The position numbers and the translations under genes are program-made. This document shows positions 14,578 to 39,186 of a stretch of 64,000 nt of DNA, piece by piece. The stretch covers positions 15,765-79,764 of IMG/VR virus record IMGVR_UViG_3300009103_002187; one strand, written 5' to 3'. The notes beneath the pieces are model-generated. The model saw nothing but the letters and a program-made list of their open reading frames with translations, searched no databases and had not been told where the DNA came from. The stretch's first letter is position 1. Every line of letters begins with the position of its first letter. This DNA is from a virus.

Positions 14578-15952
14578 TCTTAGCGCCGCGCCCTTGTTTT
14601 GCGTATAACTTGTCAAGCTTATTACCAAATGCGCCTTTCAAGATTTTAGCAACAACTTGATCTGGTATCAGATGATATTGATCAATCACATCTTGCAAGA
14701 TCAAGCCTTGTATGGGATTGTTTGTGCTGTGAGGTCGCTTGACTCTCTTTCCATGCTTTTTTGGGCTGGCAAATGTGTGCCACTTTGCCTGAAGATGCCT
14801 TGCATCCTTTATCTCCTTATCGTACATCTCCTTGTAGAGGCCTTGCGCAAACAGCTTAAAAGCAGCCAAATAAGCTGAATGATCTGGGCCTTTCCCCACC
14901 TTGAGATCGCTTAATCCTGTCTTGCCGCCATCGGGTAATACTTCCTCTACAGCTGGGTTTATTCCTATCACAAGATCTCTAAAGATCGTAAATGTTACAG
15001 CCTCAATATTATGCGCAGTTCCAAATTTTTCCATATCATATACAATAGGTAGCTTTTTACCAGGTGGGGGCAGATCTCCCAAGAGCTTTAGGTCGTCGTA
15101 GATAATATTTCGAACATTATTGAGACCCGTTCCAATCTCTTGCGCAATGAGCTTAATTAAATCTCCTAAATTCATTCTTCTAACAATGTCTGGCGTTAGC
15201 TTTTCAGCGCCCAGCTCAGCAGACACATGATTAGCCAAGGCTACCCCTGTCGCTTCCTCAACAGGGTTTAGATCGTATTCATGACCGGGTGGCAAGTCTT
15301 CTATATTACCCCTGGCCTCACCACTGTCCCCTTCAGCAGCTCCTGGGTCATCAAGATCAGACAAGTCTTCTGACCCTGGCGTGTATGATCCAAGCGCCTC
15401 CAAGGCTTCAGGATCCTGCTCTGCTGCCATGATCTCTTCATGGGATGGGGCACCCCATTCATCCTCGTCTTTTTTCTTGTCTTTCCATCGATGTTGAGAT
15501 CCCATGGGCTCGTCACCCCACCTTGCACCGGGTCGCCATTCTGGATCACCTGGCTGTGGAATCATCCCAGGGCCGACTTCGATCAAAATCTTTCGAATTG
15601 CTGCTCGAAGATGGGATTCATTTTGATTCTTTTGTCTGGCTCTTTTTCTAGCATTTCTTGCCACTCGTTTTACCTGTCGCTTAACCTTGTCAGACTCATC
15701 CTCAGGTACCTGAGATAAAACAGATATTAAAGATTGAACTAGCTCATCTTCACTAGACAGCGGGTCACCTCCCAAACTGGGCTTCTCTTTCGCCTTTTTA
15801 AGGGGTTGAACATCCATAGTTTCATCAGGTTGCACGGGTGGTTCATTTATGACTCTCGGCGCTGATTTGTCACCGGTACTTTTTTCCTTCCCCGCGTCCA
15901 AAAATTCCTGAATAATTTGGCGTACGGCACTCTTTTTAACAACTACTTTCAT
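14570..15952 (-). CDS. tag-bearing hypothetical (putative head) protein
   Basis: MKVVVKKSAVRQIIQE and NESHLRAAIRKILIE; ATATTTA at 15987-15993. Confidence 0.7.
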   Translation of the reverse strand: MKVVVKKSAVRQIIQEFLDAGKEKSTGDKSAPRVINEPPVQPDETMDVQPLKKAKEKPSLGGDPLSSEDELVQSLISVLSQVPEDESDKVKRQVKRVARNARKRARQKNQNESHLRAAIRKILIEVGPGMIPQPGDPEWRPGARWGDEPMGSQHRWKDKKKDEDEWGAPSHEEIMAAEQDPEALEALGSYTPGSEDLSDLDDPGAAEGDSGEARGNIEDLPPGHEYDLNPVEEATGVALANHVSAELGAEKLTPDIVRRMNLGDLIKLIAQEIGTGLNNVRNIIYDDLKLLGDLPPPGKKLPIVYDMEKFGTAHNIEAVTFTIFRDLVIGINPAVEEVLPDGGKTGLSDLKVGKGPDHSAYLAAFKLFAQGLYKEMYDKEIKDARHLQAKWHTFASPKKHGKRVKRPHSTNNPIQGLILQDVIDQYHLIPDQVVAKILKGAFGNKLDKLYAKQGRGAKNA

Positions 15953-21446: not shown

Positions 21447-22145
21447 CTATTTTAAAGCTTTGGCAATCTTGTCAGCTCTCTTGAAACGCTCATCAATCAC
21501 ACCCCAGTCAAGCTCTTTCATCATAGCATAAATATACGTCTTGCGGTTATTAATATAATCCCTATAATAAGAATGCTCCCAGCAATCTAAGACGATGACA
21601 GGATAAAAACCTGCAGGAAGATTGGAATTATGCAAGTCAACAATACAGTTCACATATGTCTGTAAAAATGTGCTAAACCCGGTCACCACCCAACCATTTC
21701 TTGCAGAAAGTGCACAGGCAATAAAATCCTTCTGCCATCGATCAAATGTTCCAAAGTCTCTCTCTATTCTCATAAATGCGAGAGAATCCATGTTAACCTG
21801 ACTGCGAACATCGCTGATATTAGCAAAGAAGAGCTCGTGCAAGTGAACAGCGTTGAGGTTATAAACCTCATCGATCTTAAGTGATCGATACTGGGAGTGA
21901 TTTAGGCTCGCAGCTTCGCGATCAACAGCATCAAGCTCAGCGCTAATCCGATTCAAAGTTTTAACATACTTCTCATAAAGCGTTTTGTGTGCCTTTTTAT
22001 TCTTCGCACTGAGTAGCTCAGTGGGAAGATCAAATTCCTTGATCTGTGCCACATAGGCCTCATTTAGAGTTTTTTCAGTTTCAGAATCAAGACCTAAGCT
22101 TTCTCTCACCAGGTCTCTAATATCGCCATTTTTTAAACTATCCAT
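21447..22145 (-). CDS. sod: Fe/Mn superoxide dismutase with N-terminal tag
   Basis: H...Y..YV..LN, HLHELFF, DCWEHSYY; N-terminal IRDLVRESL...LNE. Confidence 0.88.
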   Translation of the reverse strand: MDSLKNGDIRDLVRESLGLDSETEKTLNEAYVAQIKEFDLPTELLSAKNKKAHKTLYEKYVKTLNRISAELDAVDREAASLNHSQYRSLKIDEVYNLNAVHLHELFFANISDVRSQVNMDSLAFMRIERDFGTFDRWQKDFIACALSARNGWVVTGFSTFLQTYVNCIVDLHNSNLPAGFYPVIVLDCWEHSYYRDYINNRKTYIYAMMKELDWGVIDERFKRADKIAKALK

Positions 22146-35441: not shown

Positions 35442-35723
35442 TTAAGCATCGCCGAACAAAACAAATACTCTATCAAAAAAAGTTATCTCAAAACCAGGCG
35501 GGAAAAACATTTCTTTTCCTGACTCGGTGATAACTGACAATGGAGATTCTAGCGTCACGGTTTCTGAGTGGGGTTGAGGAAAAATGTCATAAATATAAAC
35601 TTCATTTCCATGTGCATTCTCAAGTCGCTGGAGCAGCTCATCAACGTGCACCTCGTACGTAAAATAAAATGTTAGTCTACTTTTCTCATTCTCAGCGATA
35701 TATCGATAAATGTCCATCTTCAC
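35442..35723 (-). CDS. hypothetical protein
   Basis: 93-aa ORF overlapping the upstream stop. Confidence 0.55.
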   Translation of the reverse strand: MKMDIYRYIAENEKSRLTFYFTYEVHVDELLQRLENAHGNEVYIYDIFPQPHSETVTLESPLSVITESGKEMFFPPGFEITFFDRVFVLFGDA

Positions 35724-38578
35724 CCATCCGGGGCTTCGGCCTCCTTGTCTTCCTCTTTCTTCTTCACATCAACTGCGCCTAGCGCGTCAAGACGATCATC
35801 CAGTCGATTAAGCCACTTATCAACAATTCTTGACATGACCGGGCCCAGTTCTTCTGCATTAAAGCCTCTTGATGTAGCTTTTTTGAACACAGATATCACA
35901 TCGTTTCTGAGTAGACTATTGTAATCCACTTCGTAGCCCTCCAGCTCCATCTCCCTGCCGCGGCCGAGGATACCTGCAACGTGTGCGCGTGTCTCAGCGT
36001 CAGACGTGTAATAACGCTCAATGTGATCGAGGCTTAGCCACTTATCTTCGCCCTCAGGAATATCTGCAGTCAACATCTCTGTTGTGTCACAGCTATGTTG
36101 AAGCTCATGTGATAGTGCATCGGCTAAATCAAATCTAAGCCACTTCTCAAACTCTTTATATCCTGCAGGGTCAGAATACATTCGTGGTATATTCATGTCT
36201 ATGACTAAATCAGATTCTGATCGATTAGAAGGAACGCATCTGTAATACGCTTTAACTTGTCCAGAGTCTTTGTTGTTGACTGAAATTATCATTCTCACCT
36301 TATTAATATTCTCATAGTCGCCAAAAATCTTTCCCTCGCTATCTAAAATGGACGGCCATTCTTCGTCAGGATTCATAGATTTCACTTCTTCTTTGACTCT
36401 GTCGCTTCTTAACGCGCCTAAGATTATCGAAAGAAGGATGTCAACATACTGAGTCATATCAGGCTCTTCTTCAACAGACTCAAGTAAAATATCAATCAAT
36501 TGAATTCTAGACTCTCCTATTAGCTGAGCATATGCTTCACTCTCAGCATCCTCTAAAGCAGCTCCTAAAGATGGTCCCTTAATTCCCTGAGACATTAATT
36601 CTCTAGCATCTGCAGCTGGAGGTGAGACCACAAACGTTAAAAATCCTGACAAGATGTTTGGTGATATGTTGGCTTCTCTTGTAAACTCCTTCATAAAGGA
36701 TCGACTCAAATCCAGGCGATTAAATAACTTCTTTAGTTTTGGTGCAGTTTCTTTCGTAATATCCTTAAAACTCATTAAGAACATTATCGATCCGATATCT
36801 TGATTAGTATAACGCATCTTTTTCAAAGAAGACTGAACTGTGGGTAAATCACTTGTAGAAGAAGCCAATAAAGCGATCTGTATGCTAGAATCACTTGAAT
36901 CCCCTACTTTTGTGATATCTAAAGGTATCGCAGGCAAGACTTGAGATAATAATCCTAGATCATTCAAGCCAACGATATACTCTTTTGGATTTATCGCGGT
37001 CTTTAGTCCTTTCTTAAACTCTTCTGTAATTCGCTCGTTGCCCTTAATAGCACCCTCACCCTGGAGAAGCCCATCATCATCTTTAATCGCTTGAGAAACA
37101 TCACTTGAAAGATCAAATCCCATTCTTGCAGCAAATCGAACTGCTCTAAGCATCCTCAGCTTATCTTCAGCAAATCGATCTTGAGCGCTGCCTCCTGCTG
37201 CACGAACTACGCCATTCCTGATATCTTCCAAGCCTCCTACATAATCTACCACCTCGCTTGTATCTAAATCATAAAAGAGGGCGTTGATAGTTAAATCTCT
37301 TCGGAGAACATCTTTGTCAATAGTTGTAAACGACACACCTGTCGGGCGCCTGCCAGATCCCAGATCCTCCCGAAATGTCGCAATCTCATACTCATTATCT
37401 CCCGGCGTCTTTACTCTCACAACTCCGAATGCCTTGCCCGTTAGATCCAATCTTAGGCGTCCATGCCTACTAAGAATATCTATTGTCTGATCTGGGGTGG
37501 CATCTGATACTAGGTCATAATCTTTGGGTGTTTTTCCTACCAGTGTATCCCGAACAGCGCCACCAACCACATATAGCTGTTTCCCAGAACCCTTCATACG
37601 TTTGTGAATATCTCGCAAGTCGTCAGGAATCTTCAGATCAAGCTTCTGTCTAATTGGGTTATGGGTCAATTCTTCACGAATTGCTGCCCTTATCGAAGAC
37701 TCATTCATGTGTTTTTTCAATAGTGCTAAAAGCTCTTTATCTTTTCTATCCAGCGCAGGTGATATCCCAGGAACTACAATTCCCCTAATATCTCTGGGAC
37801 CTCTTTCAACTCTCTGTGGTTCAGGCTCAGTCTTTGCCATAATAGCTGCAACAGCCTTTCGTCGTTCCTCGGGTTTAAGAAGCTTGATCACATCCTCTGG
37901 GTGATTTGTGGCCCGCAAACCACTCAAATTAAATCTTTCTTGTTGTGCTTTCCACGCTGCCATTTCTTCATCATTCAGCCAGCTGGGCGATCGGGGCGTT
38001 CCTCTTCTATTAACTGTAGCTGCAGTGTCACTATAACTGCTCTCATACTCTTCGAATACTTCATCTACATCTTTGCTCTTGCCAAGAAATTCTATCTCAT
38101 TGCCAGCCTCATTCCATATTTCTTCAGATATCAGGATCTCAGAACCATGATCGTAGCGATGGACGCCCCCCGCTTTTTTAATTACCCACTCTGGAACTTT
38201 AAGCGCGTAAACGTGCCCAATTCTTCCGTGGAATGATGAAATGGCACGCCAATTGGGCGTCAAAAACACACCAGATTCAATTGGTTTGTCCAGCCAGTAC
38301 CGTTGCCATGAATCATCAGCTCCAGTCCGGACATACTCTCCCGTTCTCTCACCGGTATGTCTATCCACAGCCTGCGCATCCCACTCTTCAATCCACTTCA
38401 TTTTAGGAACAGGTCTCGGTGGTCGTGGGCCGATGTGATAAAGAACTCGCTTGTTTTTCTGGCTGCGAATTGCCTTCTCAGTCAATTGAAGATCCGCTAG
38501 AACATCAAGAATATCATTAGAAACAGGCTCTCTCTTTTTCTGCAAACTTGTAAATATTTGACGATTCTCTGGTTTCAT
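35720..38578 (-). CDS. polyprotein-like fusion: ART-like domain + CCA-adding/poly(A) polymerase + HExxH domain
   Basis: LYH..GVFLTP..SEILI; VGGAVRD, DYD, RRDLTINAL, EDKLRMLRAVRF; SHELQH. Confidence 0.8.
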   Translation of the reverse strand: MKPENRQIFTSLQKKREPVSNDILDVLADLQLTEKAIRSQKNKRVLYHIGPRPPRPVPKMKWIEEWDAQAVDRHTGERTGEYVRTGADDSWQRYWLDKPIESGVFLTPNWRAISSFHGRIGHVYALKVPEWVIKKAGGVHRYDHGSEILISEEIWNEAGNEIEFLGKSKDVDEVFEEYESSYSDTAATVNRRGTPRSPSWLNDEEMAAWKAQQERFNLSGLRATNHPEDVIKLLKPEERRKAVAAIMAKTEPEPQRVERGPRDIRGIVVPGISPALDRKDKELLALLKKHMNESSIRAAIREELTHNPIRQKLDLKIPDDLRDIHKRMKGSGKQLYVVGGAVRDTLVGKTPKDYDLVSDATPDQTIDILSRHGRLRLDLTGKAFGVVRVKTPGDNEYEIATFREDLGSGRRPTGVSFTTIDKDVLRRDLTINALFYDLDTSEVVDYVGGLEDIRNGVVRAAGGSAQDRFAEDKLRMLRAVRFAARMGFDLSSDVSQAIKDDDGLLQGEGAIKGNERITEEFKKGLKTAINPKEYIVGLNDLGLLSQVLPAIPLDITKVGDSSDSSIQIALLASSTSDLPTVQSSLKKMRYTNQDIGSIMFLMSFKDITKETAPKLKKLFNRLDLSRSFMKEFTREANISPNILSGFLTFVVSPPAADARELMSQGIKGPSLGAALEDAESEAYAQLIGESRIQLIDILLESVEEEPDMTQYVDILLSIILGALRSDRVKEEVKSMNPDEEWPSILDSEGKIFGDYENINKVRMIISVNNKDSGQVKAYYRCVPSNRSESDLVIDMNIPRMYSDPAGYKEFEKWLRFDLADALSHELQHSCDTTEMLTADIPEGEDKWLSLDHIERYYTSDAETRAHVAGILGRGREMELEGYEVDYNSLLRNDVISVFKKATSRGFNAEELGPVMSRIVDKWLNRLDDRLDALGAVDVKKKEEDKEAEAPDG

Positions 38579-39186
38579 AAACCCGTCTCCGTCTTAAGAT
38601 CCCAAGGGCCCCAGTGCTTATATTCTAATATCTTCTGACGAGCTTCTTCCCAAGAGTAACGATGTATATTACCCCCTTTAACAGTGGCGGCATTAGAAGA
38701 ACTAAATCCTGGTTGCCCCCACTTCGACATGTCAACTTCAATTTCTCCAATTCTTCCAAGCTGATAATATAAAAATTTGGGTATCTCAATGTCTCGACCA
38801 TTTGATTTATCAATAACAAGATCGCCCTTTTCGACCCAGGCATGTCCATACTTGATTCCCTCTAAGCGGCCCTGCCCAGTCACCTCTCCATGCACAAGAA
38901 TTAAATCACAGTGATCTGAGGTTAGCATACACAGATCCATTATGTATTTTCCAGCTGACTCATAACAATCACCGTTATCGGTATTTCTCGCCTCGTTGAT
39001 CTTTTGTTCAACCATTAAGCCCATATCTTTTAGCCACTTAACAATCTGATCATTGACAGAAGGCTCATACTCCCCTTCAGGCCAGCCTCCATGAGATGAG
39101 GGCTTGTCTAGGTGAAGATCTTTCTTCGTCCCTTTTTTATATGCATCATTGATAAGATCTCGAAGATCGTTTCGCTTAATCTTCAT
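38575..39186 (-). CDS. tag-bearing protein with a transglutaminase/papain-like Cys-His-Asp domain
   Basis: MKIKRNDLRDLIND; GDCY, HAWVE, VID. Confidence 0.55.
   Translation of the reverse strand: MKIKRNDLRDLINDAYKKGTKKDLHLDKPSSHGGWPEGEYEPSVNDQIVKWLKDMGLMVEQKINEARNTDNGDCYESAGKYIMDLCMLTSDHCDLILVHGEVTGQGRLEGIKYGHAWVEKGDLVIDKSNGRDIEIPKFLYYQLGRIGEIEVDMSKWGQPGFSSSNAATVKGGNIHRYSWEEARQKILEYKHWGPWDLKTETGL

Follow-up and report, generated by a model that had tools for sequence, protein, structure and literature searches.

The 64,000-nucleotide stretch analysed here (the window) covers positions 15,765 to 79,764 of the virus record IMGVR_UViG_3300009103_002187, a 79.8-kb IMG/VR contig that is estimated to be 27% complete; the genes of the window lie nearly all on a single strand. 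Its source is an uncultured marine T4-type giant (jumbo) phage, to which none of the deposited phages is close, its DnaE being 28% identical to proteins of Streptomyces phages. At 35720-38578, on the minus strand (-) like every other feature of the window located below, lies an uninterrupted open reading frame (ORF) of 952 amino acids (aa), P0001, which consists of a predicted ADP-ribosyltransferase (ART)-fold module, a class II tRNA nucleotidyltransferase of the CCA-adding type and a phage-specific HExxH domain, with peptides derived from a leader tag at the module borders. We favour, with moderate confidence, the interpretation that P0001 is a genuine fusion of three normally stand-alone tagged genes, the modules of which were joined for RNA-end or tRNA chemistry.

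A three-module ORF at this position had been proposed from the letters of the sequence in an earlier reading (hereafter the original prediction), and both of its junctions have now been bridged by independent contigs. When Logan contigs of marine sequencing runs were aligned to the P0001 gene, contigs from four runs covered it; those of runs X1 and X4 bridged the first junction (ART-CCA) and those of X3, X4 and X5 the second (CCA-HExxH), with 0-2 mismatches and no indels. Because the bridging contigs come from different studies, the fusion is regarded as a natural gene and not as an assembly chimera. An assembly or sequencing artefact, by which three adjacent genes were wrongly joined, could be suspected from the uniqueness of the architecture, since no protein besides P0001 contained all three modules among the near-length candidates (523-1666 aa) in a 5.8-billion-protein collection, and from the stand-alone HExxH genes of close relatives; the spanning contigs largely refute this explanation, and we consider its probability to be close to nil. 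No RNA run was among the sequencing runs listed as carrying the gene.

The middle module (residues 306-685; 36524-37663 (-)) is identified by its sequence as a class II nucleotidyltransferase, probably of the CCA-adding type, as had been predicted. It matches Pfam PolyA_pol (PF01743; E 9e-32, 110.5 bits against a cut-off of 23), PHROG 2244 (tRNA nucleotidyltransferase; E 8e-53) and the class II relatives 3aqm, 6ibp and 1miv in the PDB (about 1e-28 to 1e-30), and the motifs GGxVRD, DxD, RRD and EDxxR are readable in the translation. CCA-adding enzymes are known from jumbo phages (PMC7824862), and the P0001 module resembles them in being a class II Pol-beta nucleotidyltransferase in which the head-domain motifs are complete, whereas it differs from them in being fused on both sides. 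Its best phage matches belong to huge uncultured phages (35-37% identity); in all 504 deposited phage records with a match to P0001, the match leaves the flanking modules uncovered.

The N-terminal module comprises an ART-fold core (residues 42-181; 38036-38455 (-)) and a helical extension (residues 182-290; 37709-38035 (-)) that ends in a conserved KD-x-ELL-x-LLKKH helix. In the core, the motifs LYH48IG, G103-V-F105-L-T and E147 correspond to the consensus LYHIG-x-RP ... GVFLTPN ... E-I-L-I of a family for which an exhaustive HMMER search returned 186 cluster representatives; H48 is conserved in 68, F105 (Phe, not Tyr) in 73 and E147 in all of 76 sequences. The H/GVFLT/E pattern noted in the original prediction is thus conserved, and the structure prediction that had been suggested as a check on this domain yielded a predicted ART fold: in the AlphaFold (AF2) model built on the 76 sequences, which has a predicted local distance difference test (pLDDT) score of 85.8, the three residues fall on strands 1, 2 and 5, as placed by the strand order of the model with no residue-level superposition. 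VIA-align matched residues 42-183 almost solely to structures of the ART superfamily, led by RES (Z 6.4, root-mean-square deviation 3.2, 100 residues aligned), MbcT (6.3) and ParT (6.1), followed by diphtheria toxin (residues 15-187, Z 5.0) and by Tpt1, PARP1 and cholix (Z 3.3-3.8). Diphtheria toxin and ParT also ranked first in Foldseek, without significance, and Arr rifampin ARTs made up 26 of the 30 nearest named clusters in the ESM Atlas. The model and these comparisons support a predicted ART fold of the diphtheria-toxin/Arr type. With Arr, RES/MbcT, ParT and diphtheria toxin the module shares a predicted fold that spans some 140 residues, with a His-aromatic-Glu arrangement that the model places on strands 1, 2 and 5; unlike these minimal ARTs, it has Phe in place of Tyr, a 50-residue insert after strand 1 and a helical tail of 110 residues after the core, and no sequence relationship to them was detectable.

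Two closer assignments of this module were rejected. An Alt-like (R-S-E) reading did not stand, since the signature is H-F-E and since tblastn against 50,697 phage records matched the CCA part alone; no Pfam family, ART families included, was matched by the query module or by the 76 family members, and no PDB entry was found with the family profile. Membership of Tpt1/KptA was discarded because there is no PF01885 match and no winged-helix RNA lobe upstream, and because the invariant Glu is present; only the NAD (nicotinamide adenine dinucleotide) lobe of Tpt1 itself can be aligned, with Z-scores (3.4-3.8) lower than those of diphtheria toxin and RES.

The C-terminal module (residues 702-945; 35744-36475 (-)) carries HELQH at 36095-36109; H824-E-L-Q-H828-S-C-D, together with E862/R864 downstream, is invariant. 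Its family consists of stand-alone proteins of about 230 aa from viral metagenomes, which carry an N-terminal MNLLREYIR tag and in which neither H-E-x-Q-H-S-C-D nor an A-E-x-R further downstream varies (H824, E825, H828 and E862 are invariant in 25 sequences). The model (pLDDT 84) places helices first, then a sheet of four strands, a long HExxH-bearing helix and a helix starting at the conserved Glu. This order of elements and the HExxH motif with a downstream Glu recall the gluzincin metallopeptidases, from which the domain differs in lacking a significant fold or sequence match, in its extra invariant S-C-D and in the modelled position of the motif at the end of the helix rather than inside it. 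The domain is probably a metal-dependent hydrolase. The paralogous domain of a relative, the contig G006, has hardly anything in common with it beyond HExxH and the Glu (hhalign E 1e-4); there, a 467-aa protein at L022:1498-2901 (-), syntenic to P0001, holds two tandem HExxH domains in the order HEMHH, tag, HEIQH, the two being distant paralogues.

The suggestion that this module is peptidase-like was not upheld as worded; it draws on the HExxH...E motif and on weak fold matches. Whole-domain VIA alignments reached M3 peptidases (neurolysin, TOP2), MATCAP and an HExxH oxygenase domain, all weakly (Z 3.4-4.6), whereas a wide VIA search gave generic helical matches only, and BFVD returned uncharacterised phage proteins only. 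These alignments speak for the idea that the HExxH domain is itself a tag-processing peptidase that cuts the fusion in cis, as do the invariance of HExxH...E, its retention in the G006 paralogue and the constant place of the domain behind a tag and C-terminal to the other modules. With Z-scores this low, with the motif at a helix end in the model and with a T4-type protease already present in the lineage, we judge cleavage in cis to be highly improbable.

The leader tag, M-K-x-x-(K/R)-x-x-L-R-x-L-I-x-E-E (the MKITKRQLRRIIRE leader), is found at the N-terminus of about 11 further ORFs of the window; it is common to unrelated proteins and is lacking from the core replication enzymes of the window. 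One of these tagged ORFs (21447-22145 (-)) encodes a Fe/Mn superoxide dismutase C-terminal domain (E 9e-19), and most of the others belong to no Pfam family. The tag was too short for a usable HMMER model, and a position-specific scoring matrix (PSSM) was built only from the N-terminal tags of the other ORFs. Its best site in P0001 was at residues 294-305 (score 13.7, equalled by about 1% of shuffles), within a canonical internal leader at residues 291-305 (37664-37708 (-); MNESS-IRAAIREE-L, with I-R-E at 300-302). An internal translation start at M291 was rejected, as no Shine-Dalgarno sequence precedes its codon. The second linker (residues 686-701; 36476-36523 (-); I-G-E at 687-689 and L-L-E at 698-700), which leads into the HExxH domain, did not score significantly as a tag. 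It aligns, however, at the place of the MNLLREYIR-x-LLLE leader of the stand-alone orthologues (alignment A1), with 4 of 14 positions identical against 66-84% overall identity (tool-reported) for the closest of these orthologues, and is read as a decayed remnant. A co-occurring relative seen in an X1 contig shares 44 nt with the P0001 gene (window 36446-36489) and diverges at 36489 into coding sequence for MNLLREYIRT, as a stand-alone HExxH gene with a canonical leader. A third, degenerate remnant lies at residues 22-41 (38456-38515 (-); L-T-E at 32-34), where the model has a helix (21-41) ahead of the ART core; its LQLTE region is a decayed tag by position when compared with the tags of homologues.

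Tag-derived peptides thus do fall at the domain borders, as had been claimed, although the tag-like character of the linkers holds fully for the first of them and not for the second or for the degenerate N-terminal LQLTE. P0001 has just 8 [LI]xE tripeptides in its 952 aa, and one of them lies at most 10 residues upstream of each module start, a placement for which a post hoc estimate gives a chance of about 1e-3. At the nucleotide level, identical residues of the tags share a codon in 44% of cases and the longest common run is 9 nucleotides. Because the codons differ and the shared run is so short, selection is read as acting on the tag peptide and not on the DNA, and a DNA repeat, promoter or recombination site was rejected on the same grounds. 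Judged from the peptides and their placement, the junction peptides are inherited leader tags, and in this lineage each of the three genes normally stands alone behind a short amphipathic leader of this type.

The domain shuffling among relatives that had been anticipated was observed: among database proteins, ART+HExxH fusions were counted 9 times, CCA+HExxH 6 times, ART+CCA once and CCA+ART twice. In most close relatives a tag precedes each module, whether stand-alone or fused, and at least 14 junctions in fusions outscore 99% of shuffles. The KD-x-ELL-x-LLKKH end of ART modules is followed by M-N-E-S-x-[LIV]-R-x-Y-[IV]-R, also where the protein terminates at that point, and tags are found at N-terminal, internal and C-terminal positions; in L002, an ART module 64% identical to that of P0001 is preceded by an N-terminal tag of canonical form and followed by another C-terminal body. 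Further fusion partners include HAD_SAK_1, 2H, LigD 3'-phosphoesterase, NUDIX, RNase_T, Fic, PAP2 and topoisomerase IB. Distant ART-like members (P0090, P0092, P0117, P0127 and P0136) occur in proteins of 1100-3200 aa that also contain the catalytic core of a topoisomerase IB; 2H and HAD_SAK_1 are present as well in one of the five, and all five are without a tag.

The variety of tag positions is what would be expected if the tags were docking or oligomerisation helices, or flexible connectors, and the protein stayed intact in the cytoplasm with neither capsid loading nor proteolysis. The tag helix is also modelled off the domain body, at low confidence (pLDDT 42-44), and the fusion itself argues for the usefulness of co-localisation in one chain. 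Such a role leaves unexplained, however, why the motif ends in the P3/P1 residues of a protease site and why the core replication enzymes of the window are free of tags, and we regard it as unlikely, at about one chance in four.

P0001 overlaps both of its neighbours. Its ATG shares the sequence ATGA with the stop codon of the tagged ORF upstream and is preceded by GGAG at a distance of 11 nt; that 203-aa ORF (38575-39186 (-)) is translationally coupled to P0001. The body of the upstream ORF is similar to the module behind the ART domain in G006 (BLASTP E 1e-6, 34% over 67 aa). It also weakly resembles the ART core itself (E 0.005) and could be a divergent ART-like paralogue. On the other side, a 93-aa ORF (35442-35723 (-)), for which a family search gave no match, overlaps the P0001 stop by 4 nt and is followed by DnaE.

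The recurring fusions and the RNA-end-healing partners suggest that the modules take part in a joint RNA-end or tRNA chemistry that uses NAD. Damaged tRNA or RNA ends are the most likely common substrate class of the ART, CCA and HExxH modules; both the enzymatic activities and the substrate of P0001 are what we infer from these associations. In the proposed scheme, 3' ends would be rebuilt by the CCA module, a translation factor or the phosphate of an RNA end would be the target of NAD-dependent chemistry by the ART-fold module, and a blocking group would be taken off by the HExxH module; the three together may counter host defences aimed at tRNA. A comparable case is offered by the 'Swiss Army Knife' multidomain RNA-repair proteins (Pfam PF10307 HAD_SAK_1), reportedly described by Burroughs and Aravind in 2016. 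P0001 and its relatives resemble them as combinatorial RNA-end-healing fusions, in which ART-like and HExxH modules are joined to HAD_SAK_1, 2H and phosphoesterases, and are unlike them in that the ART-like and HExxH families lie outside Pfam and in that a conserved leader tag separates the modules.

The form of the tag also invites comparison with the T4 head. The T4 protease gp21 cleaves after L/I-X-E, internal proteins of T4 are loaded through a 10-residue capsid-targeting sequence, and T4 Alt is trimmed at both ends, its C-terminal propeptide included (PMC9026906). Among the relatives, which were checked for the presence of protease and capsid genes only, the G006 contig (236 kb, 87% complete) has a DnaE 78% identical to that of this phage and shares the epimerase/HExxH-gene/DnaE neighbourhood; a prohead protease of the T4 type (Peptidase_S77, E 5e-28) is encoded there, as is a gp23-type capsid protein whose N-terminal part includes LLRE, and a second relative, G005, likewise has both genes. 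Neither gene was found on the contig of L002, which is a fragment. In the capsid genes of G006 (L012) and G005 (L013), LLENQ...LLRE lies about 45-60 residues from the N-terminus; it is similar to the tag end and may be a site of propeptide cleavage. Beside the G006 protease, at L011:525-998 (-), a 157-aa ORF with a tag-like helix (LKGIVKECLVEILSE) may encode a core or scaffold protein.

Because the tag ends in [LI]xE, the gp21 motif, and the close relatives are T4-type phages with the protease, head loading and trimming of P0001 are conceivable, and we hold packaging and cleavage to be a tentative possibility with odds clearly below even. If P0001 were cut, the site would most likely be after I-R-E 300-302, yielding an ART part and a CCA-HExxH part; a cut after E302 only is the likeliest outcome because the second junction tag has decayed. 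A fuller version, in which the tags load the protein into the prohead, the T4-type protease cuts at [LI]xE and two or three enzymes are injected with the DNA, strikes us as rather unlikely. It would account for the internal tags kept across many diverged fusions, with their high-scoring junctions, for an [LI]xE ahead of each module start and for the tag at the end of stand-alone ART proteins, which is reminiscent of the C-terminal propeptide of Alt, and it agrees with the Peptidase_S77 and gp23-type capsid genes of close relatives; [LI]xE is, however, a short motif. The general form of this proposal, that the internal leader is a protease-cleavable linker and that marine T4-type jumbo phages package true polyproteins and release the enzymes in the head for injection, is speculative and seems to us improbable rather than probable. 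To our knowledge, no bacteriophage is known to package true polyproteins that release sets of enzymes.

Parallels with T4 are accordingly partial. Like the Alt/gp21 system, the present case has an ART-fold enzyme (predicted here) in a T4-type lineage, and like the capsid-targeting sequence, the tag is a short leader on unrelated proteins that ends in L/I-X-E and occurs in a lineage with a gp21-type protease in relatives. In contrast, Alt belongs to the R-S-E class and the P0001 domain is H-F-E, and the P0001 tag differs from the capsid-targeting sequence in its letters, in its length of about 14 aa and in having copies inside the protein at module borders.

Several results weigh against the fusion interpretation that we favour. 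Neither the ART-like nor the HExxH family has curated relatives in Pfam, PHROGs, NCBIfam or the PDB, whether searched singly or by family; the Z-scores for the ART fold are modest, and Foldseek against the PDB gave no match for the HExxH domain at E < 0.05. The NCBIfam CCA model scores 166.8 bits on the middle module, about the same as pcnB, the poly(A) polymerase model (162.5 bits), both under their cut-offs, and tRNA genes are absent from the 64-kb window. Two of the three tags of P0001 are degenerate, at the N-terminus and the second junction; the gene sits beside DnaE, in a replication-gene neighbourhood to which it is coupled, and not beside head genes; the T4 late promoter TATAAATA is not enriched (2 matches against 3 expected), nor was a common upstream motif seen by eye; and no protease or capsid gene was found on its own contig, which is only 27% complete. 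The points concerning tags, neighbourhood, late promoter and head genes also count against a packaged polyprotein.

P0001 defines two uncurated families, a minimal ART-fold family with an H-F-E signature (186 clusters) and a phage-only HExxH...E family, and repeated independent fusions link both of them to CCA-adding enzymes and RNA-end-healing domains. We therefore propose, as a testable hypothesis, that abundant marine giant phages carry out NAD-dependent repair of tRNA or RNA, or a counter-defence based on it. If a cut after E302 proved to be true, P0001 would represent polyprotein-style cargo in a phage.

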